DNA of 43,572 nucleotides from NCBI GenBank assembly GCA_040905465.1, contig JBBDRK010000031.1, positions 1 to 43,572 of the forward strand, given 5' to 3'. The notes beneath the pieces are model-generated. The model searched no databases. It was not told where the DNA came from and was given only the letters and a program-made list of their open reading frames with translations. The translations under genes were made by a program, and so were the position numbers. Numbering within the stretch: position 1 is the stretch's first letter; each line of letters starts with the position of its first letter. This stretch comes from Trueperaceae bacterium (GTDB taxonomy: Bacteria; Deinococcota; Deinococci; Deinococcales; Trueperaceae). This document shows, piece after piece, positions 5,155 through 29,948 of the stretch.

Positions 5155-5242
5155 GACGGTGCAACGTTGAGGAATTCCGGTTTCCTCTAGTGGGGTGGTT
5201 CCGCCGGCGCTTCAGCCAGCCTGCCACCAGAGGGGACCTGTG

Positions 5243-14180: not shown

Positions 14181-14207
14181 CGATATATTGGATTCGATAT
14201 ATCGAAT
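14181..14207. promoter_or_regulatory. Putative GntR operator (unit 1)
   Basis: Perfect 16-bp palindrome ATTCGATATATCGAAT (14192-14207) plus an imperfect copy CGATATATTG (14181-14190), just upstream of the GntR gene. Confidence 0.7.
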
Positions 14208-14234: not shown

Positions 14235-14945
14235 ATGCCGATCAGCAAAGTAAGCAGCCGTGGCCGTCTATCGTACCAAGTACATCGGGCACTGAGATCG
14301 GCCCTTCTGGCAAGAACGTTCGCTCCCGGCTCGAAATTGATAGTGCGAGAGCTCGCCGAGCACCTCGACCTGTCGCCTACCCCTGTCAAGGAGGCCTTGA
14401 CCACCTTGGCGAAGGAGGGGCTGGTCAGGTCCGAGGCGCGCCGGGGATTCTTCGTGCAGCAACTCGGTGCACGAGATATTGCCGAGATCTACAGCATCAG
14501 GCAGGTGCACGAGGGATTGGCGGCCCGGCTGGCGACGCCAAAGGTGACCGCTCGTAGCATCTCGCGCCTCAGACGGCTGGTCGACAAGCAGGCCAAGCTG
14601 GCCACGCGGGGCGATTTCGAGGCCTACGGCGATTCGGACATGCAGTTTCATCAGCTGATATGGACGGCATCGGACAACAGGCGGCTGGTCGAGATCGCCG
14701 AGGGGCTCATGGGACAGGTCAGGCTGCTGATGAGTACTTCGGCGGAGGTGCCGGGTCGACTGGAGAAGTCGATCGGTGAGCACCGGGAGATCGTACGGCT
14801 GATGGCCGAGGGCTTGCCGGACGCTGCCGCCGACGCCATGATGCGACACATCAGAAACGCCGGAGACGATCTCTACCGGTACCTGGCGGCCGAAGGCGCC
14901 GCTAGCGACCCCTCGTCGCCCACTGCGGTTGGAGGAGTTCGATGA
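14235..14945 (+). CDS. GntR family transcriptional regulator (FCD domain)
   Basis: PGSKLIVRELAEHLDLSPTPVKEAL wHTH; DMQFH, EHREI, MMRHI FCD histidines. Confidence 0.9.
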   Translation: MPISKVSSRGRLSYQVHRALRSALLARTFAPGSKLIVRELAEHLDLSPTPVKEALTTLAKEGLVRSEARRGFFVQQLGARDIAEIYSIRQVHEGLAARLATPKVTARSISRLRRLVDKQAKLATRGDFEAYGDSDMQFHQLIWTASDNRRLVEIAEGLMGQVRLLMSTSAEVPGRLEKSIGEHREIVRLMAEGLPDAAADAMMRHIRNAGDDLYRYLAAEGAASDPSSPTAVGGVR

Positions 14946-16147
14946 AATTCGACCTGGTAATCGCCAACGGTACTCTGATAGATCCTTCCCAGGGCGTCGC
15001 CCGTAGATGCGATGTCGGCGTCAAGGAAGGCCGGGTGGCGCAGATAGGTGAGCGGCTCCCGACGGATCAGGCCAGCTCCACCATCGACGCCCAAGGGATG
15101 TACGTCACGCCAGGCCTCGTCGACCTGCACGCCCACTGCTATTGGGGCGGCAACCCGGGCGGGATCAACGCAGACAAGATCGGTCCCGCCACCGGCGTGA
15201 CTACCTGGGTAGACACCGGCTCGACCGGAGCCGGGAACTTCGAGGGCTTCTACTACCACGTCATCAAGCGCTCCACGGTCCGGATTCTGCCCCTTCTCAA
15301 CATCTCCCATGTCGGCACGCTGTTGGGCGCCGGGCTCGTTCTCAACGGCGGCGAGCTGTTCGACTTCCGCTTCGCCAATCTTCACGAAATCATCCGGGTT
15401 GGGGAGAAGTTTCGGGACGCGATCTGCGGGGTAAAGGTTCGGGCCAGTGTCAACGCCACCGGCCCGAACAGTCTCGACGCTCTCAGGATCGCCCGCGCCG
15501 CCGGAGACGCCCTCGAGCTGCCGGTAATGGTGCATGTCGGGCCCCCACCACCCTTCATCGAGGACGTCCTGGACCAACTGAAGGAGGGTGATATCGTCAC
15601 CCACTGCTTCACTCCGTATCACGGCGGAATAGTGGACCATCGACTGCGGATCAAGGACGCTGTTCGAGATGCTCGCGAGCGCGGGGTGCTGTTCGACGTT
15701 GCACACGGCGCCGGAAGTTTCTCCTTTGAGGTCGCGGAGGCGGCTCTCATGCAGGACTTCCCGCCCGACACGATCAGTACCGATCTCCATGCACGAAACC
15801 TCAACGGTCCGGTACACGACCTCCCCACGACCATGTCGAAGTTCCTGGCACTGGGGATGGAGCTCGAAGAAGTGATAGCGCGGGCGACTCACGTTCCTGC
15901 CAAGGCCATAGGAGCCCAGGGGGCGGGCTCGCTGAGTGTCGGCAACCCGGCGGACATTGCCGTACTATCGGCGGACGCGGGCGAGTTCCCGATGCTCGAC
16001 TCCCAGGCGGAGAGGCGACTAGGAGCGATTCGCCTCTCCGCTGCCATCACACTGGTTGCCGGCGAGCGCGTCGAGCCGGTGCAGGACGATCGCAACGAGG
16101 AAAGCGCACGAAGCAACTTCCCGGCCGTGCGCAGCTACCGACCATGA
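14942..16147 (+). CDS. Dihydroorotase-like amidohydrolase/deacetylase (COG3964 type)
   Basis: PGLVDLHAH, VDTGSTG, GVKVR, MVHVG, THCF, FDVAHG, ISTDLH. Confidence 0.85.
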   Translation: MKFDLVIANGTLIDPSQGVARRCDVGVKEGRVAQIGERLPTDQASSTIDAQGMYVTPGLVDLHAHCYWGGNPGGINADKIGPATGVTTWVDTGSTGAGNFEGFYYHVIKRSTVRILPLLNISHVGTLLGAGLVLNGGELFDFRFANLHEIIRVGEKFRDAICGVKVRASVNATGPNSLDALRIARAAGDALELPVMVHVGPPPPFIEDVLDQLKEGDIVTHCFTPYHGGIVDHRLRIKDAVRDARERGVLFDVAHGAGSFSFEVAEAALMQDFPPDTISTDLHARNLNGPVHDLPTTMSKFLALGMELEEVIARATHVPAKAIGAQGAGSLSVGNPADIAVLSADAGEFPMLDSQAERRLGAIRLSAAITLVAGERVEPVQDDRNEESARSNFPAVRSYRP

Positions 16148-16231
16148 TCGAGGTCAGGGGAAAGGCTACGACCGCCGAAGCCGGAAGCGGTGCGGCAGCA
16201 AGGCCGGCGGAGTAGCGGCAGGGAGGATAAC

Positions 16232-17707
16232 GTGAACGACCAAGGAATCAAAGTCTCGCGCGAGCGTTTGGAAGCGGGTCCCGGCGAAATCTATGCACGA
16301 ACCGTTCTGCTCCCGGTCTTCGAATTCAAGCGGCAGCACCTCTACCTCGCGCTCGTCCGCGCGCACAAAGCCTGGGTGGCCATGCTCGAAACCACCGGCA
16401 ACGTCACATCGGTAGACGCGGCCAAGCTCCTCGCCACACTCGACGACCTCGGCCGCGAAGGTCATACGGCGCTCGGGGAGTTCGATCCGAACCTCGAATA
16501 CTTCTACTCCCATATGGAGCATCAGCTCAACCTACGGCTCGGCGAGGATGTGGCCGGCAACATCAACATCGCCCGGACCCGCCCCGAGCCTCTGGCGCGG
16601 ATGCTGATACGCGAGCGGCTGCTCACCGTTATCGGTCTGGTCATCGCGCTTCGCAAAACCCTCATACGGCTGGCAGCGCGTGAAGCGAGCACGGTGATGC
16701 CGGGCTGGACTCACTTCCAGCATGCGCAGGCGGCTACCGTCGGGCACTACTTCCTCGCCATTCAGGATGTTTTGCAGCGGGACACCGTCAGGCTCGACCA
16801 CGCGTACGCTACCGTCAATCGCTGCACCTTGGGTTGCGGAGCGCTGGCCGGTACGTCGTACGAGATCGATCGCGAGCATGTGGCCAGGGCACTGGGATTT
16901 GACGGCCTGATCGAGAACTCGCTCGACTGCGTCGCGGGTGCCGACCATTACACCGAGACGATAGCCGCGCTGACGGGCATGATGATCAACCTGAGCCGAT
17001 TCTGCGACGATCTCTACACCCTCCACACCTGGGAGTTCAGATTTCTGGAGATCGGGGACGACTACTCGGGCTCCAGCAGCATGATGCCGCAAAAAAAGAA
17101 CCCTTATCCGTTCGAGTATGTTCGGGCGCGAGCGGGACACATTGCAGGGCTGATGAGCTCGGCTCACACCATCTTGCACAACACCAACTTCCAGGACATC
17201 AAGGATGTCGAGGAGGAGGCGCTCTACCCGGTGTTCGAGGCCCTCACCCAGACCGAACGCGCGCTCGAGCTGCTCGACGGCACCCTGTCCACGGTGCGGT
17301 TCGACGCGGAACGAATGCTCCAGGTCACCACCGAGGGCTTCTCCACGGCCACCGAATTGGCGGCGGTCATCCACCGCACCAGCGGCCTCTCCTACCGCAC
17401 GTCCCACAGGATCGTCGGCGACGTGGTGCGACGAGCGGTGAGCAGGAAACTGGCTGCCGTGGAGGTAACCGAGGTGCTGGTCAACGAAGCGGCCGTCAAG
17501 GTGATCGGCCGCCCACTGGAGCTCATTACCGCCCAGATCAAGGGTGCCCTCGATCCCACGGCCTTCGTCAATGCTCACGTCAGCCGCGGCGGCACCGCGC
17601 CGGTTGAGGTTCACCGGATGATCGAGGAGCGCAGCAGTCGAATCACAACAGAGGAGAAGGAACTCGCGACAAGGGTCGACGGCATCGCGGAGCGGGATAA
17701 GGTCTAG
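16232..17707 (+). CDS. Argininosuccinate lyase-like C-N/C-S lyase (fumarase/aspartase superfamily), probably not ArgH
   Basis: MPGWTHFQHAQ, GSSSMMPQKKNP signature; SRND replaced by TRPE; GTG start after GGGAGG. Confidence 0.82.
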   Translation: MNDQGIKVSRERLEAGPGEIYARTVLLPVFEFKRQHLYLALVRAHKAWVAMLETTGNVTSVDAAKLLATLDDLGREGHTALGEFDPNLEYFYSHMEHQLNLRLGEDVAGNINIARTRPEPLARMLIRERLLTVIGLVIALRKTLIRLAAREASTVMPGWTHFQHAQAATVGHYFLAIQDVLQRDTVRLDHAYATVNRCTLGCGALAGTSYEIDREHVARALGFDGLIENSLDCVAGADHYTETIAALTGMMINLSRFCDDLYTLHTWEFRFLEIGDDYSGSSSMMPQKKNPYPFEYVRARAGHIAGLMSSAHTILHNTNFQDIKDVEEEALYPVFEALTQTERALELLDGTLSTVRFDAERMLQVTTEGFSTATELAAVIHRTSGLSYRTSHRIVGDVVRRAVSRKLAAVEVTEVLVNEAAVKVIGRPLELITAQIKGALDPTAFVNAHVSRGGTAPVEVHRMIEERSSRITTEEKELATRVDGIAERDKV

Positions 17708-18562
17708 ATGGAGAGCCTGGCAGTAGACATCTGGCGTGGTGGGGAGCAGGGGCGATTCGAGCGCTACCGAGTGCCTCGTCTGAGCAACCAGACCGTGCTC
17801 GATGTGGTGAGCTACGTGCAGCAGCACCTCGACTCCACTCTCGCCTACCGGTTCGCCTGTCGCGTGGGAATGTGCGGGTCGTGCACCATGACGGTCAACG
17901 GCGTTCCCCGCTGGACTTGCCGTACCCACGTCGAGCGGGTGGCGGGAACGAAAACGCTGACGATCGAGCCACTCCGGAATTTCCCCGTTATCAAGGATCT
18001 GGTGTGCGACGTAAGCGAGTTCTTCGACAAGCTTGCCCAGGCCGGAGGCTACTTCCGGCCTACCCGCACGCGCAACGACGAGCTCGCGGTGGTTCCGCCG
18101 GACACGCTAGAGCGGGCGCGGGTCGACGAAGCGATCGAATGCATAGGCTGCGGTGCTTGCTACGCGTCCTGCGCTGTAGAAGCGATGGATCCACGCTATC
18201 TGGGACCCGCTGCCCTCAACCGGATCTGGACACTGCTGAACGACGTACGTGATGGAGCCGGAGCCCACCGACTGATCGTCGCGGCAGGTGCCGGCGGCTG
18301 CCACTCCTGCAAGACGCTGATGAGCTGTACCGACCTGTGCCCCAAACGGATACCGCTCACGGCCTCCATCGCCGGCCTGAAGCGCGCTACCGTCCCGGGA
18401 CTGCTGGGGCCGGGAGTCGCTCGACGGCATGATCGCGCCGGCAGCGACGGGCCCGCGGCCGGAACCAGCGGCGAGTTGCCGGCCGGATCCGGCGCGTCTC
18501 GACAGGGGGCGAGCCGGAAGAAGGGAGGACCGAGTGTCGAGGATGGCTCGAAGCCGCTCTAG
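17708..18562 (+). CDS. Succinate dehydrogenase/fumarate reductase iron-sulfur subunit
   Basis: CRVGMCGSC...C, CIGCGACYASC, CHSCKTLMSCTDLCP. Confidence 0.9.
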   Translation: MESLAVDIWRGGEQGRFERYRVPRLSNQTVLDVVSYVQQHLDSTLAYRFACRVGMCGSCTMTVNGVPRWTCRTHVERVAGTKTLTIEPLRNFPVIKDLVCDVSEFFDKLAQAGGYFRPTRTRNDELAVVPPDTLERARVDEAIECIGCGACYASCAVEAMDPRYLGPAALNRIWTLLNDVRDGAGAHRLIVAAGAGGCHSCKTLMSCTDLCPKRIPLTASIAGLKRATVPGLLGPGVARRHDRAGSDGPAAGTSGELPAGSGASRQGASRKKGGPSVEDGSKPL

Positions 18563-18899
18563 GGCGTTGCCGAGTGAGTTGTCGCGCGGCGCTTATGGCG
18601 CATGGGCGTGGCTGCTTCAGCGACTCAGCGCGCTACTGCTGCTGGTGCTGTTGCCGATCAAGATCTGGTCGGGCTATGTGTTCACCGGCAAAGCGTCCGG
18701 ACCCGCCGGCCTGGCATCCCTGCACGTCGATCCGGTAATTGACGGGCTGCTCCTGTTCGCCCTCGCCTTCCACGTGCTCTTCGGGCTTAGAGTCGTGCTC
18801 ATCGACCTCGGCATGGCCAGGCACTCGGCCACTCTGTTCAAGCTGTCGCTACTGCTCGCCGTCGGGCTCTCCGTGGCAGCGATTGCGGCCGTCCGGTGA
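18543..18899 (+). CDS. SDH/FRD cytochrome b membrane anchor subunit
   Basis: Three TM helices; WLLQRLSA; AFHVLFGLR heme-His motif. Confidence 0.75.
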   Translation: MARSRSRALPSELSRGAYGAWAWLLQRLSALLLLVLLPIKIWSGYVFTGKASGPAGLASLHVDPVIDGLLLFALAFHVLFGLRVVLIDLGMARHSATLFKLSLLLAVGLSVAAIAAVR

Positions 18900-18909
18900 C
18901 AGGAGACCC

Positions 18910-20649
18910 TTGAGAAACGAACGCACCGACGTCCTCATCCTCGGTAGCGGCGGTGCCGGCCTGTTGGCCGCCCTGCATGCCCACGACGCCAACCCCGAGC
19001 TGGACATCACCGTCGCCGTGAAGGGCCTGTTGGGGAAGTGCGGCTGCACCCGAATGGTACAAGGCGGCTACAACGTCGCTTTGGCGCCGGGCGATTCGCC
19101 AGAGCGGCACTTCATGGACACAATCGAAGGCGGCAAGTGGCTCTCCGATCAGGCGCTGGCGTGGACCCTGGTCACCGGCGCCGTCGAGCGCGTGCGCGAG
19201 CTGGAGAACGAGATCGGCTGCTTCTTCGACCGCAACCGGGACGGCACCCTGCACCAGAAGGCGTTCGCCGGCCAGACCTTCGACCGGACAGTGCACAAGG
19301 GCGACTTGACCGGGATAGAGATTATCAACCGTCTCGCCGAACAGGTGTGGGCGCGAAAAATCGGCCGGCTCGAGGAACACCGGGCGGTAGCGCTGATCCC
19401 CGACAGCAGCGGCGCGCGCATCGCCGGGGTCCTGCTCCTCGACGTTCGCAGCGGAGAGCTCCTGTTCGTTCAGGCGAGGGCGGTACTGCTGGCCACCGGG
19501 GGCGGTCCCACCATGTACCGCTACCACACCCCCTCCGGCGACAAGAGTTGCGACGGCCTGGCAATGGCGTTGCGCGCCGGACTCGCGGTTCGTGACATGG
19601 AGATGGTCCAGTTCCACCCCACCGGGCTGCTCGCCGGAGACCACACTAGAATGACCGGAACGGTACTCGAAGAGGGTCTTCGCGGGGCGGGCGGTTACCT
19701 GCTAAACGGCCAGATGGAGCGTTTCATGCACCGCTACGATCCTCGCGCCGAACGAGCGACGCGCGACATCGTCTCGCGCGCCATCTTTACCGAGGTCCAG
19801 GAGGGCCGCGGGTCGGAGGGCGGCGGAGTATACATCTCGATGGCTCACCTGGATACCGCCGAGGTGGAGCGACGTTTCAAAGGCATGGTAGAGCGGTGCC
19901 GCGACTGCGGCTTCGACCTGGTCAATGAGCCGGTCGAGGTAACGCCCACCGCGCACTACATGATGGGAGGAGTCGTCTTCCGTCCGGACTGCACTACCGG
20001 CCTCGCCGGGCTCTACGCCGCCGGTGAGGACACCGGCGGCGTCCACGGCGCCAATCGCCTGGGAGGCAACGGCGTGGCCAACTCCACCGTCTTCGGTGGC
20101 ATCGCCGGTGAGACCATGGCTAGCGAAATTTCCGACGGGGTCGAGTTCGTCCAGCCAGACGGGGACGTGCTGGCGCAGGCCTCCGCCCGGGTAATGAGGC
20201 CGTTGGATCAGCCGGCGGGGGACCTGAGTGAGATTCGCCGCGAGTTGGACGGCCTGATGTGGCTTCACGTGGGAATAGTCCGGGACGGTCCAGGGCTCGA
20301 GCAGGCCGAGGACAGGTTGCTGGAGCTTCAGCGGCGGCTGGACCGGGTGGGAGTCAACGGAGGCGACCGGCGCTTCAATCTCGGCTGGCAGGACTGGCTG
20401 AACCTCGATAGCCTGATACTTGTCGGCCGGGTCATCTGCGCTTCGGCGTTGGCAAGAGCGGACTCTACCGGCGCCCACTATCGTTCAGATTTCCCGCAGG
20501 GCGGTCGGCCGGACGACACCTTCTTCACGACCGCGCGGCTCGACTCGATCGGCGCTACCCTGGTGGCCAACCGTCCGGTGGAGTTTTCGATGGTGAGCCC
20601 CGGCGGATCCCTGCTCGCCCCTTCCGAGTCGTCTCCTCCAGGGTCCTGA
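18910..20649 (+). CDS. SDH/fumarate reductase-family flavoprotein subunit
   Basis: GSGGAG, QFHPTG, EEGLRG, RATRDIVSR, HYMMGG, HGANRLGGNG; TTG start after AGGAG. Confidence 0.9.
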   Translation: MRNERTDVLILGSGGAGLLAALHAHDANPELDITVAVKGLLGKCGCTRMVQGGYNVALAPGDSPERHFMDTIEGGKWLSDQALAWTLVTGAVERVRELENEIGCFFDRNRDGTLHQKAFAGQTFDRTVHKGDLTGIEIINRLAEQVWARKIGRLEEHRAVALIPDSSGARIAGVLLLDVRSGELLFVQARAVLLATGGGPTMYRYHTPSGDKSCDGLAMALRAGLAVRDMEMVQFHPTGLLAGDHTRMTGTVLEEGLRGAGGYLLNGQMERFMHRYDPRAERATRDIVSRAIFTEVQEGRGSEGGGVYISMAHLDTAEVERRFKGMVERCRDCGFDLVNEPVEVTPTAHYMMGGVVFRPDCTTGLAGLYAAGEDTGGVHGANRLGGNGVANSTVFGGIAGETMASEISDGVEFVQPDGDVLAQASARVMRPLDQPAGDLSEIRRELDGLMWLHVGIVRDGPGLEQAEDRLLELQRRLDRVGVNGGDRRFNLGWQDWLNLDSLILVGRVICASALARADSTGAHYRSDFPQGGRPDDTFFTTARLDSIGATLVANRPVEFSMVSPGGSLLAPSESSPPGS

Positions 20650-20658
20650 TCGCGAATC

Positions 20659-21492
20659 ATGATCGACTATCACACCCACATCGGCGAAGAGAGCCACTAC
20701 AGCCCGGAGTATGCGGAGGAGGGCTACCGGATGCGCGGCAGGCCGCCGCGGCGATCGGGCCCCGACCAGCATCGGGAGGCGATGAACGGGATGGACCGGG
20801 TCATCGTCCTGGCGTTCAAGAGTGTTCATCTGGGATTCGAGGTTCCCAACGATTATGTCGCCGAATACTGCGCCAGCGACCCCCAGCGGCTGATCGGTTT
20901 CGCATGCGTAGATCCGCACGTCCACGGCGCCCTGGAGGAGTTGAAACGGTGCGTGGGCTCACTGGGGCTGCGGGGCCTCAAGACCAGCCCGATCTATCAG
21001 GGGTACGACCCGATGGACGAGCGCATGCTCCCGATCTACCGCTACTGTGCCGATCAGGGTCTGCCGATTCTGACCCACCACGGCACGACCTTCCCACGTC
21101 GGGCGCCTCTCGCCTGGGCGCATCCGGAGCAGGTGGAGCGCATAGCCCTGGCCTTCCCGGACCTGCGCATCATCATCGCCCACCTGGGACACCCGTGGGA
21201 GGCGGAAACGATCAGTGTCATCCGTAAGCACCCGCACGTTTACAGTGATGTTTCCGCACTCTTCTACCGGCCCTGGCAGCTCTACAGCTCGTTGATGCTG
21301 TGCAGAGAGTACGGGGTGTGGCACAAGCTGGTCTTCGGAACGGACTATCCGGTGAGCGAGACCGATGAGTCGATAACCGGGCTGCGCAGGATGGCGGAGT
21401 ATGCCGAGGCGATGCCGTTTCCGGGCTTCGATCGGGACGATATCGAAGCGCTTCTTCAGAACGACATCTGCGCCGACCTCAACCTGCTGTAA
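20659..21492 (+). CDS. Amidohydrolase family protein (Amidohydro_2 / COG2159)
   Basis: IDYHTH, THHGT, AHLGHP, FGTDYP. Confidence 0.88.
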   Translation: MIDYHTHIGEESHYSPEYAEEGYRMRGRPPRRSGPDQHREAMNGMDRVIVLAFKSVHLGFEVPNDYVAEYCASDPQRLIGFACVDPHVHGALEELKRCVGSLGLRGLKTSPIYQGYDPMDERMLPIYRYCADQGLPILTHHGTTFPRRAPLAWAHPEQVERIALAFPDLRIIIAHLGHPWEAETISVIRKHPHVYSDVSALFYRPWQLYSSLMLCREYGVWHKLVFGTDYPVSETDESITGLRRMAEYAEAMPFPGFDRDDIEALLQNDICADLNLL

Positions 21493-21606
21493 CAACCGCC
21501 GGCCGGCGACGTCCTCTGTCAGCTGCACTCGTCTGCTTTTGGCGGGGTGGTTGCCTGACTCGTACAGGCAGGAACCTTCGCCGCGGGGGCCTGTCGGATC
21601 AGACCG

Positions 21607-21640
21607 GGCCCAGCTCCCCTTAGTGCAGGCCCAGCTCCCC
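21607..21640. repeat. 13-bp direct repeat straddling a stop codon
   Basis: GGCCCAGCTCCCC at 21607-21619 and 21628-21640. Confidence 0.65.
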
Positions 21641-22468
21641 CAATATGTCGTTGCCGATCAGTGCCTCGATGTCCTCGCGGCTGAACGACGGGAACGGCAT
21701 GTGGCGTGCATAGCCCAGCAGCCGCTCGAGCCCGTCTACGGTCTCGTCCGCCGTGGTGACGGGAAAATCGGTGCCGAACACCAGCTTGTTCCACACTCCG
21801 TACTCCTTCGCCAGGGTAAGCGAGCCGTACAGCTGCCAGGGCCGGTAGAACAGCGCCGAGATGTCGGCGTACACATGGGGATGCTTCCGTACCACGGCGA
21901 TCGTCTCGGCCTCCCAGGGATGGCCCAGGTGCGCAATCAGTATGCGGAGCTCGGGGTACGCAAGAGCGATCTCCTCGATCTGCTGCGGATGCGCCCATTT
22001 GAGCGGCGCAGTTCGCGGGAACGTGGTCCCGTGATGGGTCAGAATCGGCAGCCCGTGGTCCTCGCAGTAGCGGTAGATGCCCAGCATGCGGGCATCCAGC
22101 GGCTCGTAGGCCTGGTAGATCGGACTGGTCTTGAGGCCGCGAAGGCCCAGCTCGCGGTGCGCGCGCCGCAGCTGGGGCAGGGCGTTGCCGTCGTGGGGAT
22201 CCACCGACGCGAAGCCGATGAACTTTTGGGGGTCGGTAGCGACGTACTCGGCGACATACTCGTTGGGCACGTCGACACCCAGGTGAAGGCTGCGGAAGGC
22301 AAGCACGATCGCCCTGGAAACGTTGGCCATTGCCGCTCCGTGGGCCGAAAAGCTGGTCGCGAGAGTCGCGGCACCGGCGCCGCGCATTCGTTCGGCTTCC
22401 GCGAGAATCGGCTCGCCCCACTGTTCGGCTGTACCTATGTGAGTGTGATAGTCGATGACGGGCTGCAT
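21620..22468 (-). CDS. Amidohydrolase family protein (Amidohydro_2), close paralogue of 20659..21492
   Basis: IDYHTH, LRGLKTSPIYQ, THHGTTFP, AHLGHPWEAETI, FGTDFP. Confidence 0.88.
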   Translation of the reverse strand: MQPVIDYHTHIGTAEQWGEPILAEAERMRGAGAATLATSFSAHGAAMANVSRAIVLAFRSLHLGVDVPNEYVAEYVATDPQKFIGFASVDPHDGNALPQLRRAHRELGLRGLKTSPIYQAYEPLDARMLGIYRYCEDHGLPILTHHGTTFPRTAPLKWAHPQQIEEIALAYPELRILIAHLGHPWEAETIAVVRKHPHVYADISALFYRPWQLYGSLTLAKEYGVWNKLVFGTDFPVTTADETVDGLERLLGYARHMPFPSFSREDIEALIGNDILGELGLH

Positions 22469-23583
22469 CAGGGCGTCCGGTAGTGCTCGACCTTGCCGTC
22501 GTCGAGCTCGACACCCAGGCCGGGCTTAAGGGAGGGGCGTGCCTCGCCGCCGGATATCGCCAGCGGCTCGGCCAGCAGGTCGCCTTCATAAAAGAACGGA
22601 CTGAGGATGTCGCAGGGGAACTCTTCCGCTCCGATGCCCACGGTCGCCATTGCCAGATGGATCATGGCCGCGCTGGCGACACCCATCTCGAGATTGCTGC
22701 CGACGGTGCAGGTGATACCGGCTGCCTCCGCCACCGCCGCAGTCTTGCGTGCGGCGCCGATCCCGCCGCCCTTGCCCACATAAACCGAGAGCACGTCCGC
22801 CGCCTCGGCTCGCACGATCGCCATGGCGTCCTGAAGGCTGTACACACTCTCGTCGGCCACGATCGGCAGGGCGGAACGGCGGCGCACGTCGGCCAGCCAG
22901 GAAACGTCAGCGGCCGGCACCGGCTGCTCCACGAAGAACAGGTCGAACTCTCGTAGTCGTTCGATCGTCGCGATTGCCACCCGCGGCATCCAGCCGCCGT
23001 TGGCATCGACCCCCAGTCGAACTGACGGACCGATCGCCTCACGCACCGCCCGTACCCGGGCTACGTCGGCGTCCGGCCCCAGGCCGACTTTGACCTTCAT
23101 CGCCTGGAAGCCCTGTGCCACCGCCCATAGGGCTATCTCGGCGGCCTGCTCGGGGGCGACACCCGATACCGAGAACTTCGTCGGCACGTAGTCGCGCACC
23201 GGCCCACCGAGCAGCCGGTATACCGGCAGTCCTACCGCCTTGCCGAGGATGTCCCACAGCGCCATCTCCAGACCAGACTTGGTGAAGGGATTGTTTGCGA
23301 CCGTTTTGCGAACGACCATGGTCAGACGCTCCACATGCGTCGGATCCTGCCCCAGCAGCTGCGGCTCGAAGTATTCCCGGATCAGGTGGGCCGCCGTCGT
23401 CTGGTCCTCACCGCTCCATCCCGGAGTGCAGGAAACCTCACCGAGGCCGACGATTCCCTCGTCGGTGTGCACTTTCAGGAGCAGGAAGGGCGAGACCTTG
23501 TGGGAGCCGCGGCCGCCTTTGATTGCCCGCTTGGGGTCGATGGGGATGCGTACGGGGACGGTTTCGATGCGGGTGATCTTCAT
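22468..23583 (-). CDS. Enolase superfamily, muconate cycloisomerase-like protein
   Basis: MKVKVG, DANGGW, VEQP, ADES; N-terminal capping domain. Confidence 0.88.
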   Translation of the reverse strand: MKITRIETVPVRIPIDPKRAIKGGRGSHKVSPFLLLKVHTDEGIVGLGEVSCTPGWSGEDQTTAAHLIREYFEPQLLGQDPTHVERLTMVVRKTVANNPFTKSGLEMALWDILGKAVGLPVYRLLGGPVRDYVPTKFSVSGVAPEQAAEIALWAVAQGFQAMKVKVGLGPDADVARVRAVREAIGPSVRLGVDANGGWMPRVAIATIERLREFDLFFVEQPVPAADVSWLADVRRRSALPIVADESVYSLQDAMAIVRAEAADVLSVYVGKGGGIGAARKTAAVAEAAGITCTVGSNLEMGVASAAMIHLAMATVGIGAEEFPCDILSPFFYEGDLLAEPLAISGGEARPSLKPGLGVELDDGKVEHYRTP

Positions 23584-23652
23584 TGCGCTCCTCGAATCGG
23601 TCGGGGACGAGATGCTGCTGCCCCCGGGCCGCCGTGTGGTCGGTGGGTGTGG

Positions 23653-24771
23653 TCAGTCGCACAGGGCGGCGAGTTGCTCCCGGTCGAGTGCGACTCCGAG
23701 CCCCGGCCCTTCCGGTACGGTCAAGCGCCAGCCCTCGACGGATAGTGGAGTCACCAGGGCACACTCGGTGTGGAACACCGGCCCGATAATGTCGGCCGCA
23801 TATCGTTCGACCATGATATTCGGTAACGCTGCGGTTACGTGAGCGTTGGCGGCCGAGGCGATGTCCCACTCCAGATTGCTCCCGATGGCGCAGTGGACGC
23901 CCGCCGCTTCGGCCATCGCCACTATCGCCATCGTTCCGAGAATTCCACCGTTCTTGCCGGGGTAGACGCTGATGATGTCCGCGGCGCGTTCCCGGATGCA
24001 GCGCCCGGCGTCCTGGGGCGTGAATACCGATTCATCGGCCATTACCGGCAGCACCGTGCGACGCCGCACCTCGGCGAGCCCTTCGAGGTCGAGGCGATGG
24101 ACGGGCTGCTCGACGAAGGCGACGTCGTACTCCTCGAGGCGCTGCGAGGCTCGAACCGCCTCGTTGACCGACCAGCCGCCGTTTGCGTCAACCGTCAGCC
24201 TCACGTCGGGGCCCACTGCCTCGCGTACCCGCCGCACCCTCTCCAGGTCGAAGGCAAGAGGATCGTGGCCGACCTTGAGCTTGATCGTTCGGCAGCCCTC
24301 GTCCACGATCCGCGTCGCCGCCGCGGCAGACTCCTCGGGCCCAACCGGCATTATCGGAAACCTGAGCGGAAGGGATGAAGAGCGAACGGTTCCCCCGAGA
24401 AGAGCGTAGAGGGGAGCCTCCAGGGTCTTGCCCAGGATGTCGAACAGCGCCATCTCGATTCCGGCCTTGACGAACGGGTTGGCGAACGTCCGCGCGATCT
24501 TCGACATGCAGAAACGTATTCGGCACGGGTCCTCGCCGACGAGCCGTTCGGCCAGGTGCCGATCGATCACCGCCTTGGACCCCAATTGAATCTCCCCGCT
24601 CCAGTCGGGGGAACCGTTGACCTCCCCGATACCCTCGATGCCCGCGTCTGTCGTGATGCGGATAATCAGCAGGTGAGACGTGAAGCGGAAGCCCTTCGGG
24701 TCGGCGACCGTTCCGACCTGCCTGTCCACACCTACACTCACCGGAATCGTCTCGATCGCCACAATTTTCAC
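23653..24771 (-). CDS. Enolase superfamily, muconate cycloisomerase-like protein
   Basis: IKLKVG, DANGGW, VEQP, ADES; GTG start after AGGAGG. Confidence 0.88.
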   Translation of the reverse strand: MKIVAIETIPVSVGVDRQVGTVADPKGFRFTSHLLIIRITTDAGIEGIGEVNGSPDWSGEIQLGSKAVIDRHLAERLVGEDPCRIRFCMSKIARTFANPFVKAGIEMALFDILGKTLEAPLYALLGGTVRSSSLPLRFPIMPVGPEESAAAATRIVDEGCRTIKLKVGHDPLAFDLERVRRVREAVGPDVRLTVDANGGWSVNEAVRASQRLEEYDVAFVEQPVHRLDLEGLAEVRRRTVLPVMADESVFTPQDAGRCIRERAADIISVYPGKNGGILGTMAIVAMAEAAGVHCAIGSNLEWDIASAANAHVTAALPNIMVERYAADIIGPVFHTECALVTPLSVEGWRLTVPEGPGLGVALDREQLAALCD

Positions 24772-24817
24772 GGAGTCCTCCTGTTCCATACGGGAGCGCC
24801 GGCCGTGGTGCCGGCGA

Positions 24818-25894
24818 TCATCGGCCCCACGCATCGTCCAACAGTCGCAGCCAGTTTCCATGCATCACCGCGCTGACGTCGGCGTCCGAGTAGCCGCGAG
24901 CCGCCAAAGCTCCGGAAACCGCCTGCAGGTCGGAAATCGTATCGATGTCCACCGGATAATCCTCCCTGGCCAGCGCCGCGGCCAGGTTGCTTCCGATTCC
25001 CACCTGGAGTGCGTTGCCGGCAAGCTGGCAGATGTGATCGATGTGGTCGATGAAGTCGGCGAGGCTGGCACGAGGCTCGTCGCTCCGACCCACCCGCCTG
25101 CCGGGACGAAGCTGCCAACCGGTCATCGAAACTCCCACTACGCCGTTACGCTCTACGATTGCGCTCAGCTGACGATCCGTGAGCAGACGCGGATGCGGTA
25201 TCAGGGACCGGCAGTTGCTGTGACTGGCGAGCACCGGGCCCGGAAAGAGCTGCAGGGCATCGTCGAACGTTCTGTCGGAGGCATGACTCAGGTCGAGCAC
25301 GACGCCGAGCCGGGCCATCATGGGCAACAGCCGGGCCCCCAGCGGGGTAATACCCACTGCGCTGCCGGCTCCGCCCGCGAATCGGCCCACGCCGTCGTGG
25401 CTGACGCTCGCAATGCGCACGCCGGCCGAATGCCACTCCTCTATCGATTCGGGCGTCAGCAGCGGGTCTGCGCCCTCCATTGCGATCACCAGCCCCAGGG
25501 GAGGTCCATCTCCGGCGATTTCGCCGCTGTCCCACTCCTCCCACTGCCGCATATGAGCGGTGAGGGACGCGTTGTCCTCCAGGATCCGAACGTGCCCCGC
25601 GCTTTCCAGTGCCCGGTAATAGGCCAGATGAGCTTGCGCGATTGCGTAGGCCTGCGTGGGAGATGCATAGTCGCGATGAGCAACGGCCTGCCCGGATGAG
25701 CGGGCAAATACTGTTGCGAACGACACTGCCACCTTGCCTCGCCGCATGTCGGGCAGGGCCACCGAACCTTGGGCCCTTCCCACTCCAGGAGTGCCCAGCT
25801 CGTTGCTGCGGATCGTGTGGGCGGAGGTCAGCAGGTCGCGGTTGAGTTGCAGGGCGTTCATGGCCAGATCGAGGTGGCCGTCCACGACTAGCAT
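24818..25894 (-). CDS. Membrane dipeptidase (M19) family protein, catalytic Asp motif degenerate
   Basis: VDGHLD, MEGAD, DLSH, ASHSN, but GSNLAAA where the family has GxDxDG. Confidence 0.85.
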   Translation of the reverse strand: MLVVDGHLDLAMNALQLNRDLLTSAHTIRSNELGTPGVGRAQGSVALPDMRRGKVAVSFATVFARSSGQAVAHRDYASPTQAYAIAQAHLAYYRALESAGHVRILEDNASLTAHMRQWEEWDSGEIAGDGPPLGLVIAMEGADPLLTPESIEEWHSAGVRIASVSHDGVGRFAGGAGSAVGITPLGARLLPMMARLGVVLDLSHASDRTFDDALQLFPGPVLASHSNCRSLIPHPRLLTDRQLSAIVERNGVVGVSMTGWQLRPGRRVGRSDEPRASLADFIDHIDHICQLAGNALQVGIGSNLAAALAREDYPVDIDTISDLQAVSGALAARGYSDADVSAVMHGNWLRLLDDAWGR

Positions 25895-27009
25895 CAGCCG
25901 TCCACCTGGCGGGCAGCCGCGGGGCTGCTCCAGGCGCCGCGAAGGCAGCGGAGCCAGTTGCCGTGCATGACGTTGTCGACGTCCCCGGCCGAGAATCCCC
26001 GTTCCTGCAGCAATCGGGGCAGCGACTGCAGGTCGGCGATAGTGTCGAGATCGCGAGGGAACTCGTCGCGGCCCACGCCGCCGTCGAGGTCGGTGCCGAT
26101 CGCCACATGCAGGGCGTCGCCGGCGACGCTGCATGCGTGCTCGATGTGATCTACAACGGCGCGCATGGTCACGGCTCCGTTGTGCCTGGCGCCGACCACC
26201 CAGTCTGCAACCAGGTCGGAGCATCCCAGCAGCACGCCGACAACACCTCCGCGCTCCACAACAGCGGCGATCTGGGAGTCGCCGAACTGCCGCTGATTCG
26301 GCACCAGTGTCCGGCAGTTGCTGTGGCTGGCCAGCACCGGGCCCTCGAAGCGCTCCAGCGCCTCCCAGAACGAGGCATCAGAGAGGTGCGTGAGGTCCAG
26401 GATGAAACCCAGTCGGTCCATCTCCGCCAGCAGCTCCCGGCCCATCGGCGTCAGTCCCTGCTCACTACCGGTGCCGCCCGCATAGCGCCCGCTGCCGAAG
26501 TGCGCGGGTCCGATTATCCGCAGGCCTTCGTCCCACCACACTTCGAGGCGGTCGGGCGCGAGAACCGGATCGGCGCTTTCCATCAGCACGACGAAGCCGA
26601 GCGGGGGCATGTCCGCGTGGGCGGGCACGCCGTCAGCCAGTTGCTCCCACTGGTGCCAGGCAAATATGTGGTGGTCGAGCTGCTGACGGTCGGTTATCAA
26701 CCGGGCGTGACCCTCCGCCTCCAGCGCCCGGTAGTAGGCGAGGTGGCCGTGCGCGGAGGCGTCGGCCTGTACCGCGGAGGCGAAGTCCATGTGGGGGGCG
26801 ACGCAGCCGGTCGAGCGGGCGGTCAGCACCGCGAACGACAGTGCTACCCGGCCCTGCCGCATCTCCGGCAACGCCACCGTTCCCTGCGCCATTCCCTTGC
26901 CGACGCGGCCGAACTCGGCTATGCGGGTCTCGTACGCCGAAACCGTAAGGTCGCGGTTGCCCTGGAGGGCGTTGAGGGCGAGATCCAGATGACCGTCAAC
27001 GATGATCAT
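25894..27009 (-). CDS. Membrane dipeptidase (M19) family protein
   Basis: VDGHLD, MESAD, DLTH, ASHSN, GTDLDGG, HGNWLR. Confidence 0.88.
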   Translation of the reverse strand: MIIVDGHLDLALNALQGNRDLTVSAYETRIAEFGRVGKGMAQGTVALPEMRQGRVALSFAVLTARSTGCVAPHMDFASAVQADASAHGHLAYYRALEAEGHARLITDRQQLDHHIFAWHQWEQLADGVPAHADMPPLGFVVLMESADPVLAPDRLEVWWDEGLRIIGPAHFGSGRYAGGTGSEQGLTPMGRELLAEMDRLGFILDLTHLSDASFWEALERFEGPVLASHSNCRTLVPNQRQFGDSQIAAVVERGGVVGVLLGCSDLVADWVVGARHNGAVTMRAVVDHIEHACSVAGDALHVAIGTDLDGGVGRDEFPRDLDTIADLQSLPRLLQERGFSAGDVDNVMHGNWLRCLRGAWSSPAAARQVDG

Positions 27010-27036
27010 TGAGTAGCCACCATACAACAATTAAAC

Positions 27037-27066
27037 TTGAAATATCATATTTCATCAGGCTATGAT
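27037..27066. promoter_or_regulatory. Divergent promoter region with palindromic operator (unit 2, site 1)
   Basis: TGAAATAT-C-ATATTTCA (27038-27054); TTGAAA-18 bp-TATGAT rightward promoter. Confidence 0.75.
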
Positions 27067-27111
27067 GCCGGTCAACCGGCCTCGAGCATGGGCCCGACTG
27101 GGAGACCCACT

Positions 27112-28002
27112 ATGATCGTTGACTGTCATACTCACCTGATGTGGTACCCGGACCACCTGGAAGATCGTTATGTGGATGAGGCGCTTCAGTCGAAGCTGGT
27201 GAAGTTGAAACGTTCGGGTGGTGAAGCCTACGCTGGCAGGCTCGACCGGCATTCCTACGACTCGGTTCCGGAAGAGCACTGGAAGGTATCGGCCAGTGCC
27301 GACAAGGTGGTGGTATTCGGATTGCAGGCCAAGGCCTGCGGGGTGTGGGTGCCGAACGAACTCATAGCAGATTATGTGCGGCAGCACCCGGAGAAGCTCG
27401 AAGGTTGGGCGAGCGTGGACCCGAACGAGCCCGACTGTGTCGAGCAGCTCGAGCACTGCGTGAACGAACTCGGCCTGCGAGGCCTGAAGCTCGGCCCTGT
27501 CTACCAACACTTCGACCCGCAGGACCGCAAGCACTGGCCGCTGTTCGAGAAGGCCCAGGAGTTGGACCTGCCGATCATGTGGCATCAGGGAACGACGTTC
27601 CCGTCACGTGCAAAACTCAAGTGGGCACACCCGCTCCAACTGGAAGACATCGCGATGGAATTCCCGGACCTGCGAATGATCATCGCGCATCTCGGCCATC
27701 CCTGGGAGGTCGATACCATCGCGCTCATCCGCAAGTGTCCCAACCTCTACACCGACATCAGCGCGGTTCACTATCGTCCCTGGCGATATTGGCAGTCGAT
27801 GATCGCGGCCCTGGAGTACGGGGTGGACCACAAGATCCTTCTGGCGTCCGACTTTCCGTCAGGAACCATCGACAACGTAATCAGCGGCCTGAGGCGCGTC
27901 AACGACGTGGTAGCCGGAACCAACCTTCCGACCGTGCCGATCGAGGTTCAGGACAGCATCATCTTCGAGAATTGGAAGAAGTTCTTTCCGCTGTGGGCTT
28001 AG
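27112..28002 (+). CDS. Amidohydrolase family protein (Amidohydro_2), third paralogue
   Basis: VDCHTH, WHQGTTFP, AHLGHPWE, ASDFP; RBS GGAG. Confidence 0.88.
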   Translation: MIVDCHTHLMWYPDHLEDRYVDEALQSKLVKLKRSGGEAYAGRLDRHSYDSVPEEHWKVSASADKVVVFGLQAKACGVWVPNELIADYVRQHPEKLEGWASVDPNEPDCVEQLEHCVNELGLRGLKLGPVYQHFDPQDRKHWPLFEKAQELDLPIMWHQGTTFPSRAKLKWAHPLQLEDIAMEFPDLRMIIAHLGHPWEVDTIALIRKCPNLYTDISAVHYRPWRYWQSMIAALEYGVDHKILLASDFPSGTIDNVISGLRRVNDVVAGTNLPTVPIEVQDSIIFENWKKFFPLWA

Positions 28003-28105
28003 CCATCGGTCAACCGGTACCTGGCCGCCGAGGGTCTGCGCGAGCTCGCACGATTTTTGGCTGGATCGAAGACCGGCTGATGGAGGCCGGTCGCCTCGAG
28101 GCGTC

Positions 28106-28900
28106 GTGGGCGAAGTGAGATCGGTCTGTTATCGGGAACTGACTCGCGAAGAGATCGGTGAGATCGCCCCGCGTGCCACCGCCGTCTTGCCGGTTGCGGC
28201 CATCGAGCAACATGGTCCGCATCTGCCGGTATGGGTGGACGCACTCGTGGCTGAGCGCCTGGCACTTGCCGCCGGTGAGAGGATCGCGGATTCTGCCCCG
28301 GTCGTCATCTGCCCAACCGTGTCGTTCGGCGCTTCCCACCATCACCTGGTCTTCCCGGGGGCGCTGTCGCTTTCCCGAGACACGCTACTGCGCGTTCTGG
28401 CCGATCTAACCGACTCGCTCGTGTCGAGCGGATTTCGAAGCATATTCATACTGAACTGTCACGGCGGCAACGAAGAGGTGGTCCGCATGGCGGCGCGCGA
28501 GCTGGTTCTGCGCCACAGCCTTGCCGTCGGCGCGGGTTCGTACTGGACCATCGCCTGGGAATCGCTGATCGACGGCGGCGCCGGCGACGTCGGCCGGGTG
28601 CCCGGTCACGCCGGCGGCTTCGAGACATCGCTGATGCTGGCGCTGGAGCCGGAGTTGGTGCGAAGGGAGCGCCTGCCTTCATCGCACGGGGGCGTGGTCA
28701 GCGGGCCGCCGGTCGAGCCGACCGGTCTGCCGCTGACCCTTCATTCCGGCAGCTGGAAAGCTGCCGACGGCTACAGCGACGACGCGTCGCGGGCATCGGG
28801 CGAGCACGGCGAGCGTTTCTTCGAGGGGATCGTCAACCGCCTGGCCGACCACCTGCTGCGGTTCCACCGTCGGGCGCTGGGTGAAGCGGATGTGCAGTAG
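28106..28900 (+). CDS. Creatininase / MftE family amidohydrolase
   Basis: EQHGPHLP..D, SHHH, NCHGGN, GHAGGFETS. Confidence 0.9.
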   Translation: MGEVRSVCYRELTREEIGEIAPRATAVLPVAAIEQHGPHLPVWVDALVAERLALAAGERIADSAPVVICPTVSFGASHHHLVFPGALSLSRDTLLRVLADLTDSLVSSGFRSIFILNCHGGNEEVVRMAARELVLRHSLAVGAGSYWTIAWESLIDGGAGDVGRVPGHAGGFETSLMLALEPELVRRERLPSSHGGVVSGPPVEPTGLPLTLHSGSWKAADGYSDDASRASGEHGERFFEGIVNRLADHLLRFHRRALGEADVQ

Positions 28901-28936
28901 CGCGGGCCGCTCCGGCCCTGAAGGAGGGAACAGCGC

Positions 28937-29863
28937 ATGTCTACGGTCGACTTGAGAGCTCGCCTCAAGAACGTTCACGCCTATCCCACGACGCCGTTCA
29001 ATCACGCCAACCTGTCGGAACTGGACGAAGACGGCCTGCGCCGGAACCTCGAGTTCCTGGTCCATCACGGGGTAAGGGTCATCAACGCGGGTGGCGGCAC
29101 CGCCGAGGTCGAGGCGCTCAGCCCCGAGGAGCTCGTGATGCTGGTCCGTACAACGTTCCAGGTGACGGCGTTCCATATGACGGAGGGCCGCTCCCTGGTT
29201 TTGCCCACCTTGCCGGGCAATCTGGCGGTGGCTCTCGACCTGATCCCCAGGTATGAGGAGCTGGGGGCGGAGGTGCTGCTCGCCATGCCGCCGTTCATCC
29301 GCAACCAGGTTCCCGGCGACCTCGAGGGCGTCGCCAACTACCTGGAGACGCTCGGCGCAGCCACCCGGTTGCCGCTCATCCCCTACAACACCCAGGGCTG
29401 GCCACTCGAATTCTTCGAACGTCTGTCCGAGATCGACAGCATCATCGCCATCAAGGATCCGATGCACCAGCCGCACGTGCTGTTCAGGGCGATCAGCCGC
29501 CTGGGTGACCGTTTCGTCTGGATCGGCAACAAACGCTACGATCCGGCCGTCCTGCACTACAGGTACATGTCCGGCATCGAAGGGTTCACCGCCGGGATAA
29601 TCAATTTCGCGCCCGCATTCGAGCTCGACCTCCACGAGGCTGCGCTTGCAAGCGACTGGCCCCGGATGGAGAAAATCCAACTCGGCCTCGCCGGTCTCGA
29701 CCGGCTCCGCACCGCCTACGGTGACGCGGTGATCAAGACAGGCCTCGACCTCGTGGGCCTGGCCGGGGGCAGGATGCGTCCGCCGCGACTGGACCTGCCG
29801 CAGGCGGTTCGCGACCAGGTCCGGAGCGAACTTCTTCAGCTGGAGCTGGAGGTGATCGCCTAG
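28937..29863 (+). CDS. DHDPS/N-acetylneuraminate lyase family protein (KDG dehydratase-like)
   Basis: PTTPF, GGGTAE, IPYN, AIKD Schiff-base Lys, RPPR. Confidence 0.82.
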   Translation: MSTVDLRARLKNVHAYPTTPFNHANLSELDEDGLRRNLEFLVHHGVRVINAGGGTAEVEALSPEELVMLVRTTFQVTAFHMTEGRSLVLPTLPGNLAVALDLIPRYEELGAEVLLAMPPFIRNQVPGDLEGVANYLETLGAATRLPLIPYNTQGWPLEFFERLSEIDSIIAIKDPMHQPHVLFRAISRLGDRFVWIGNKRYDPAVLHYRYMSGIEGFTAGIINFAPAFELDLHEAALASDWPRMEKIQLGLAGLDRLRTAYGDAVIKTGLDLVGLAGGRMRPPRLDLPQAVRDQVRSELLQLELEVIA

Positions 29864-29948
29864 CTCGGGAGCCGGACAGCCAGCCACCTGTGCCAGGACG
29901 CTTTGCGTTGCCAGCCGCCAGGCCGGCCTCGCCGGAAAGGGAGGGAAA

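Follow-up and report, generated by a model that had tools for sequence, protein, structure and literature searches.

A seven-gene operon of a Trueperaceae bacterium (Deinococcota) encodes a lyase that resembles argininosuccinate lyase (ArgH) together with a paralogue of respiratory complex II. The operon occupies positions 14235-21492 on the plus strand of contig JBBDRK010000031.1 (assembly GCA_040905465.1), which was analyzed as a whole (43,572 nucleotides (nt), hereafter the window). Lyase and complex-II paralogue very probably constitute a functional module that is distinct from arginine synthesis and from housekeeping respiration. Comparison with gene clusters of other bacteria and of archaea suggests that the module in the window acts on 3-sulfopropionate and sulfoacrylate and that the lyase stands in the place of a hydratase; we give this reading a probability of about 0.5.

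The lyase belongs to a clade separate from ArgH

The lyase gene (16232..17707, plus strand, with an alternative GTG start at 16190) has a recorded product of 491 amino acids (aa) with the domains Lyase_1 and ASL_C2. A PF00206 score of 137 bits, the GSSxMPxKxN signature loop and the TH/C2 region place this protein in the aspartase/fumarase superfamily. On the ArgH equivalog model TIGR00838 it scores 337.5 bits and thus passes the cut-off of 279.5; canonical ArgH proteins score 645-692 bits. The best database relatives of the lyase share 50-60% identity with it, have a length of about 500 aa and stem from haloarchaea, Gemmatimonadota, Actinomycetota and Salinisphaera-like bacteria. Since the clade passes the TIGR00838 cut-off, its members carry the label argininosuccinate lyase, as did every named relative in the protein search.

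A tree of 55 sequences was calculated, containing 25 members of the lyase subfamily and 23 canonical ArgH proteins including the one encoded elsewhere in the same genome, and drawn without ethylenediamine disuccinate (EDDS) lyase and S-(2-succino) lyase. The 25 subfamily members form a clade of their own with a support of 100 in the SH-like approximate likelihood ratio test (SH-aLRT), and the 23 canonical ArgH proteins form a separate clade, likewise with a support of 100. Column-by-column comparison showed that the catalytic TH pair, the GSSSMMPQKKNP loop, other catalytic columns and many structural columns are kept in the lyase. The substrate-side motifs of ArgH are not found. When the 25 subfamily sequences were compared with the 23 ArgH sequences, W.GRF of ArgH was found to be replaced by S.ERL, ED.H by EY.Y, HT.RSRNDQVA.D by NI.RTRPEPLA (SRND to TRPE), a motif ending in NPD by one ending in NPY, and KGLPL.YN.D.QEDK by HNTNF.DI.D.EE.A. 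All of these replacements are invariant in the subfamily (25/25), which points to a conserved mechanism on a different substrate. On sequence grounds, the lyase is a member of a distinct clade of proteins of about 500 aa and not an ArgH.

The source genome (3.53 Mb, 81 contigs, 95% complete) encodes a canonical ArgH on contig C11, which reaches 658 bits on TIGR00838 compared to 337 bits for the lyase of the window. Canonical sdhA (772 bits) and sdhB (265 bits) genes lie together on contig C29, and a NadB-like gene is present on contig C1. The lyase and sdh genes of the window are therefore extra copies: the lyase is not the only ArgH candidate of the genome and does not fill the arginine-pathway role, and the sdh genes are not the only housekeeping locus. 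Pfam scans of the larger open reading frames (ORFs) of the window detected no other arginine biosynthesis genes. An earlier note on the window had described the lyase as a non-ArgH protein that keeps TH and an SSxMPxKKN loop and has TRPE instead of SRND, without other arg genes nearby; it had also asked whether canonical argH and sdh genes exist elsewhere in the genome. The description is borne out, and both sets of genes are present. A third ArgH-like paralogue is encoded on contig C43 at about 109540-111715 (locus L003); it scores 258 bits on TIGR00838 and has kept SRND. An Amidohydro_2 gene lies immediately upstream of it, and no such neighbor was found within 1.5 kb of its sister sequences in four genomes of the same order.

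The complex-II paralogue is a dedicated second copy

Three genes encode the complex-II paralogue. The iron-sulfur subunit SdhB (17708..18562, plus strand) has a Fer2_3 domain (98.7 bits) and passes TIGR00384 with 182.3 bits (cut-off 88); a C-terminal tail of about 40 aa is unmatched in its homologues. A single small membrane anchor of the Sdh_cyt type follows at about 18535..18899 (plus strand; PF01127, 45 bits), for which the GTG at 18535 behind GGAGGA was chosen as start. The flavoprotein SdhA (18910..20649, plus strand; FAD_binding_2 256 bits, Succ_DH_flav_C 83 bits) starts with TTG behind AGGAG. It does not reach the cut-off of any SdhA or FrdA model; TfrA scores best with 521 bits (cut-off 718), and TIGR01812 gives 425 bits (cut-off 567).

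Aligned with the canonical SdhA of the genome, the paralogue keeps the HPT, RD, HY.MGG and HGANRLG columns, some of which we take to be catalytic, and the substrate-binding His/Arg columns are retained. The histidine that links flavin adenine dinucleotide (FAD), located in RSHT, is replaced by cysteine (GCTRMVQGG), and cysteine is the consensus of the paralogues at this position at 90% or more. This conserved cysteine may or may not be an FAD-binding residue. In addition, the paralogues carry a 6-residue insert after HPTGL, LTEG is changed to LEEG, a Thr-to-Glu change in the capping-loop motif, and RGEGG to RGAGG. In the SdhA tree, all hydratase-linked and lyase-linked paralogues fall into a single clade, which excludes the canonical SdhA of the genome as well as the NadB-like proteins (SH-aLRT 99). 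With canonical sdhA and sdhB on contig C29, the earlier note's view of the flavoenzyme as a dedicated paralogue holds.

The anchors differ between clusters, with a single small Sdh_cyt gene in the window, two anchor genes in Rubrobacteraceae and in the proteobacterial clusters, and one protein of 255 aa at the Gemmatimonadetes locus. At the Haloarcula montana plasmid locus L183, the only haloarchaeal locus scanned for an anchor, no ORF with an Sdh_cyt match was detected beside sdhB and sdhA.

Lyase and complex-II paralogue are paired in bacteria and archaea

At least 12 further lyase loci were gathered from other genomes by a search in which the pattern scan, with its common ArgH and SdhA motifs, covers the lyase clade thinly. 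In nine of the 12, genes for an SdhA-like protein (51-55% identity) and an SdhB-like protein adjoin the lyase gene. These nine are five haloarchaeal loci (one of them on a Haloarcula plasmid), two loci of Rubrobacteraceae, one soil-type metagenome contig and one Gemmatimonadetes locus. Two of the three unpaired loci are on contigs shorter than 6 kb; the third, L013, is taken up below. The lyase was detected in only 3 of 301 sampled genomes of the haloarchaeal class and in 1 of 301 in the phylum of the Gemmatimonadetes genome. Among 60 relatives of the window genome, neither the lyase, at orthologue level, nor the SdhA-like gene was found. The repeated pairing of a rare lyase with a rare Sdh paralogue in both archaea and bacteria speaks for a functional unit, and the coupling of the lyase to the flavoenzyme, which the earlier note had claimed for the window, is thus seen well beyond it.

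Further genes recur on the same stretch as the lyase. Across the 12 loci, SuyB-like genes were found in six, and TauE, Ldh_2 and SsuA/NMT1_2-type binding protein genes in four each. In the haloarchaeal loci, two genes follow that of the lyase, a small ORF of the size of SuyA and one for a GD_AH protein of 390 aa that is of the split SuyB type. Of these five loci, four start with a TauE-family gene and three contain Ldh_2. Two haloarchaeal loci, L294 and L295, contain just sdhB, sdhA, the lyase gene, TauE and the SuyA-like and SuyB-like genes. A Rubrobacteraceae contig combines SuyA/SuyB-like genes, a 2-hydroxyacid dehydrogenase/Ldh_2 gene, GntR, two anchors, sdhA, sdhB, an ATP-binding cassette (ABC) transporter of the SsuA/NMT1_2 type and the lyase gene.

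A gamma-glutamyltranspeptidase gene lies near the haloarchaeal lyase/Sdh/SuyAB cluster in three loci, L183 (3727-5343), L187 and L188; the L183 plasmid carries the whole cluster. At L188 (Haloarcula amylovorans) the Ldh_2 gene (14348-15430) matches in two parts, residues 1-68 and 95-331; the interruption may be due to an insertion or a disruption.

Related clusters carry a fumarase-like hydratase in the position of the lyase

The closest relatives of the window SdhA (65-71% identity) were examined in 80 loci, taken from among the matches listed and mostly belonging to Burkholderiales and Alphaproteobacteria. Genes for a class-I fumarase-like C-terminal subunit are present in 74 of these loci and those for the N-terminal subunit in 65. 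Ldh_2 was found in 44 loci, SuyB-like genes in 36, TauE in 23 and an NMT1_2 binding protein in 16, and SdhB-like proteins 53-65% identical to that of the window are encoded in 61. The ArgH-like lyase is absent from all 80. Conversely, none of the 12 lyase loci contains fumarase-like genes, nor does the window or the remainder of its genome. Taking the 12 lyase loci, the 80 SdhA loci and the window together, the complex-II paralogue is accompanied by the fumarase-like hydratase or by the ArgH-like lyase, never by both.

We considered the window as a hybrid of the two cluster types and dropped this idea. In the unconstrained tree, the window SdhA branches as sister to the fumarase-type clade, and its grouping with the lyase-linked SdhA proteins is not rejected by the approximately unbiased (AU) test (p = 0.34). 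Because the lyase-linked grouping is left standing, no claim is made on the order of events.

A possible route for 3-sulfopropionate

The SuyAB-like, TauE, Ldh_2 and SsuA-type neighbors and the fumarase-like hydratase in the slot of the lyase point to a sulfonated analogue of succinate or fumarate. The conserved core would be a two-enzyme module made up of the lyase and the SdhB/C/A paralogue. In the first step, the membrane-linked flavoenzyme would desaturate a succinate look-alike, the best candidate being 3-sulfopropionate, which would yield sulfoacrylate, and the electrons would pass to quinone through SdhB and the small anchor. In the second step, the ArgH-derived lyase would act on the enoate, most likely by adding water to give 3-sulfolactate. 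In haloarchaea and Rubrobacteraceae, the SuyAB-like proteins could then cleave sulfolactate to pyruvate and sulfite, and the TauE-family protein could export the sulfite. The whole route, from 3-sulfopropionate through sulfoacrylate and 3-sulfolactate to pyruvate and sulfite, would copy the succinate-fumarate-malate steps on a sulfonated substrate. The window contains the Cys/LEEG-type complex-II paralogue beside an enzyme proposed to act on the enoate, as would be expected for such a pathway. Of the two roles that the earlier note had offered for the flavoenzyme, the handling of a substituted fumarate analogue is the one that fits the sulfonate neighbors best, and the handling of fumarate itself is not supported.

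Hydration is the most likely reaction of the lyase because only a lyase that produces sulfolactate would make the minimal haloarchaeal set complete. The main alternative is amination to cysteate: sulfoacrylate would be reversibly aminated to L-cysteate or an N-substituted derivative, which a CuyA-type pyridoxal phosphate (PLP) sulfo-lyase would then desulfonate. Cleavage of C-N bonds is the ancestral chemistry of the ArgH clade, and the genome, which has no matches for SuyB and Ldh_2, does encode a PLP enzyme of the TIGR01275 family (320 bits, cut-off 289.4), the family to which CuyA presumably belongs. However, this gene is located on another contig beside a DeoC-type aldolase gene and has no link to sulfonates, so that its context gives the CuyA-type route no support. 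Moreover, the haloarchaeal loci combine lyase, SdhAB, TauE and SuyAB without an aminotransferase, L294 and L295 also without Ldh_2, and the lyase stands in for the hydratase of the related clusters. We therefore regard amination as unlikely.

The direction of the first step has to be weighed as well. In classical complex II, mutants without the FAD-linking histidine lose succinate oxidation and retain fumarate reduction. The cysteine at this position in the paralogues would accordingly favor reduction and speaks against the proposed desaturation. The lyase or a dehydratase could then produce sulfoacrylate or fumarate, with the flavoenzyme serving as an electron sink as in aspartate or fumarate respiration. 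Against this, the clusters hold SuyAB, which consumes sulfolactate directly, as well as uptake transporters, and 3-sulfopropionate as the product of an electron sink would leave the SuyAB of the same cluster without a role. Host taxa such as Bordetella, Paraburkholderia and Polynucleobacter are, as we take it, mostly aerobic. A reductive function is thus very improbable.

Besides the cysteine, several observations weigh against 3-sulfopropionate degradation in the window. Substrate, direction and hydration are what we infer for the module, the substrate from gene neighborhoods, and these neighborhoods are not uniform: at L013 the lyase has unrelated neighbors, the 8 kb on each side being free of Sdh genes, and SuyB-family matches are absent from the Gemmatimonadetes genome that encodes the nearest lyase. 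The SuyB-like, Ldh_2 and SsuA-type neighbors all stay below the NCBIfam equivalog cut-offs, the Ldh_2 proteins with 213-217 bits (cut-off 500) and the binding protein with 87 bits (cut-off 163.5). In the window genome itself, neither PF20629 (SuyB family) nor PF02615 (Ldh_2) gave a match and no protein exceeded the Xsc cut-off, so that SuyAB-like genes for a downstream desulfonation are present neither in the cluster nor in the rest of the genome. The operon has no transporter of its own, and no sulfonate-specific gene is linked to the module here. In favor of the proposal, a biochemical precedent exists for ArgH-like enzymes acting on this carbon skeleton. XcbC, an ArgH homologue of bacterial coenzyme M biosynthesis, is described as removing phosphate from phosphosulfolactate to give sulfoacrylate (PMC9457059). 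The window lyase scores 245 bits on the XcbC model NF052535 and, with a curated cut-off of 575 bits, is not a member. On this model the subfamily ranges from 240 to 263 bits and canonical ArgH from 212 to 237 bits, which shows no special affinity; because canonical ArgH scores nearly as high, the match to this model was dropped as a specific link to sulfoacrylate chemistry.

These observations leave room for another substrate, such as sulfosuccinate, 3-sulfinopropionate or another substituted C3 or C4 acid, which in the window might be a non-sulfonate compound. No neighbor reaches the equivalog cut-off for a sulfolactate enzyme, the genome is without SuyB, Ldh_2 and Xsc, and both carboxylate-binding Arg/His pairs of SdhA are kept, which would also fit a dicarboxylate with an extra substituent. 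However, several phyla share the split SuyA/SuyB-like pair, TauE and SsuA/NMT1-type binding proteins, and a succession of dehydrogenase, hydratase and SuyAB matches 3-sulfopropionate without any superfluous step. We consider such an analogue quite improbable and prefer 3-sulfopropionate as the substrate.

The two amidohydrolases are probably not part of the module

The operon also encodes two amidohydrolase-superfamily proteins. The first (14942..16147, plus strand) is a metallohydrolase of the COG3964 amidohydrolase/deacetylase family, which passes the equivalog model NF006689 with 424.7 bits (cut-off 371) and has 2ogj and 2ics as its nearest solved chains. The second is the Amidohydro_2 protein encoded by the last gene (20659..21492, plus strand; PF04909, 137.8 bits). 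Its best solved relative is the uncharacterized 3irs, and neither the sequence search against solved structures nor the protein atlas yielded a function.

According to the earlier note, these hydrolases are partners in a pathway in which an N-substituted aspartate or a succino-adduct is generated by ring-opening or deacylation of a precursor, the lyase frees fumarate from it and the flavoenzyme reduces or otherwise handles the fumarate. Such a reaction would suit the lyase, as enzymes of the aspartase/fumarase superfamily usually yield fumarate. Among solved structures, the lyase reaches 195-196 bits with the chains 6g3d and 6rx8, close to the 204 bits with Thermus ArgH (2e9f). The entries 6g3d and 6rx8 are titled argininosuccinate lyase; we take them to be the EDDS lyase of Chelativorans. 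The dicarboxylate-binding Arg/His columns of SdhA are retained, and the COG3964 and Amidohydro_2 genes share the tight operon. However, neither hydrolase is encoded in the 12 other lyase loci or in the 80 SdhA loci, and among the matches listed in scans of genome contigs and metagenomes no other locus combines the lyase/Sdh module with COG3964 or Amidohydro_2. Orthologues and paralogues of the hydrolases cluster instead with creatininase, dihydrodipicolinate synthase (DHDPS), M19 and MR_MLE genes. A dedicated enzyme for free fumarate is not needed since a canonical SDH exists, the conserved neighbors of the module are sulfite-related, and no EDDS-type gene context was found at the window. The release of fumarate from N- or S-succinyl adducts is therefore decidedly unlikely, and the sulfite-related neighbors and the replacement of the hydratase point to a sulfonated analogue instead.

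The closest orthologues of the COG3964 protein (63-65% identity) were found in two loci, one with creatininase, DHDPS-like and Amidohydro_2 genes and the other with M19 and MR_MLE genes; one of the two belongs to a genome of the same family. The families beside these orthologues are those that fill the rest of the window. COG3964 is present in only 3 of the 60 relatives of the window genome, neither of the two same-genus genomes being among them. The two hydrolases of the operon are probably either passengers that are co-transcribed with the module or additions made in this lineage; the operon would be the conserved lyase/Sdh module embedded in a hydrolase island specific to the lineage. It is conceivable, if improbable, that an ArgH-derived sulfoacrylate hydratase and a Cys-type complex II make up a second version of the 3-sulfopropionate route in which desulfonation is an undescribed step, possibly carried out here by one of the co-transcribed amidohydrolase-superfamily enzymes.

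Operon layout and surroundings

The operon starts with a gene for a transcription regulator of the GntR/FCD family (14235..14945, plus strand, ATG at 14235; PF00392 56 bits, PF07729 101 bits). A perfect 16-bp palindrome, ATTCGATATATCGAAT, is found at 14192..14207, 28 nt 5' of gntR in an AT-rich patch; it is an inverted repeat with 100% complementary arms and 0 nt between them and a candidate operator, and a second 8-nt inverted repeat overlaps it. The seven genes, gntR, COG3964, lyase, sdhB, sdhC, sdhA and Amidohydro_2, are tightly spaced in the order, the shared direction and with the overlaps and short junctions that the earlier note had reported. The gntR and COG3964 genes overlap by 4 nt, and 42 or 84 nt separate COG3964 from the lyase gene, depending on whether the latter starts at 16190 or 16232. 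Between lyase and sdhB the gap is 0 nt, sdhB and sdhC overlap by about 28 nt, and gaps of 10 nt (containing the AGGAG ahead of the TTG start) and 9 nt precede sdhA and Amidohydro_2, respectively. A consensus scan detected no internal promoter-like sites within the operon. It found one terminator-like hairpin, inside sdhC, with a mean of 3.6 in shuffled sequences, and thus nothing beyond the shuffles. Recent transfer was rejected as far as composition is concerned, the GC content and the GC content at third codon positions of the lyase and sdh genes being those of the neighbors. The 20 kb around the operon have almost no counterpart at the DNA level in two genomes of the same genus.

Downstream, a convergent Amidohydro_2 gene (21620-22468, minus strand) lies 130 nt behind the last gene of the operon, with which it shares 65% identity; altogether the window contains five Amidohydro_2 paralogues. 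The ORFs 21401-22483 (plus strand) and 21519-22589 (minus strand) overlap the convergent gene, have no Pfam match and are probably not genes. From 22468 to 36161 a hydrolase-rich island follows with four M19 dipeptidase genes, two genes of the MR_MLE enolase superfamily and three more Amidohydro_2 genes, as well as a creatininase-family gene, a DHDPS-family gene and one for a DUF3604 protein. Parts of this set recur beside COG3964 orthologues in records of Trueperaceae and Gemmatimonadota (L273, L274). About 8 kb upstream of the operon lies a gene for a TauE/SafE-family membrane protein (5195-5986, plus strand), the only sulfite-related gene of the window; in tblastn (E<=1e-6) it did not match the TauE genes from the haloarchaeal clusters or from those of Bordetella.

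Implications and comparison with known systems

3-Sulfopropionate can originate from homotaurine and dihydroxypropanesulfonate. Literature searches yielded no gene assignment for its degradation, and searches by enzyme name were empty. One article cites a thesis for the conversion of homotaurine through 3-sulfopropionate and sulfoacrylate to sulfolactate in Roseovarius and treats 3-sulfopropionate degradation as otherwise unreported (PMC11489063). In a 2026 review, the mechanism of 3-sulfopropionate degradation in Bilophila is called unclear (PMC12890257). If the proposed reading is correct, the lyase and the complex-II paralogue are a candidate gene set for this degradation, and the route extends to haloarchaea, Actinomycetota, Gemmatimonadota and the genome analyzed here. 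Two unrelated families, the iron-sulfur fumarase-like and the ArgH-like proteins, would then fill one slot of the pathway. As the lyase clade passes TIGR00838, genomes may also be credited erroneously with a gene of the arginine pathway.

With ArgH and delta-crystallin, the lyase shares the fold family of Lyase_1 and ASL_C2, the TH pair and the GSSxMPQKKNP loop. It differs in being about 35-40 residues longer, in scoring half as high on the ArgH model and in having Sdh-like instead of arg neighbors. Like the presumed EDDS lyase (6g3d/6rx8), it belongs to the ArgH clade without being an ArgH, comprises about 500 aa and is extended similarly at the C-terminus, the alignment reaching residue 500; the EDDS lyase, however, keeps SRND and has TQ for TH, and the similarity amounts to only about 195 bits.

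The paralogue has the domains of respiratory complex II (SdhABCD/FrdABCD), namely FAD_binding_2, Succ_DH_flav_C, Fer2_3 with 4Fe-4S, and Sdh_cyt. In contrast to the respiratory enzyme, it carries cysteine in place of the FAD-linking histidine and a loop insert, and the genome encodes it in addition to the housekeeping enzyme. Its closest counterparts are the clusters of Pseudomonadota that combine a complex-II paralogue with class-I fumarase-like and SuyAB proteins, on which no paper was found in the literature search. The window differs from these clusters by the ArgH-like lyase, the lack of a fumarase-like gene, one anchor instead of two, and an operon without SuyAB, Ldh_2, TauE and a transporter. 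It resembles them in SdhA (65-71% identity) and SdhB (53-65%), in the Cys-for-His exchange and the LEEG motif, and in belonging to the same clade.

XcbC differs from the window lyase in context, which for the latter is catabolic and not that of coenzyme M biosynthesis. Both are ArgH-like and of similar length, the 495 positions of NF052535 being matched almost end to end. The chemistry proposed here would share with XcbC the enoate sulfoacrylate and an oxygen-linked leaving group, with water in place of phosphate.

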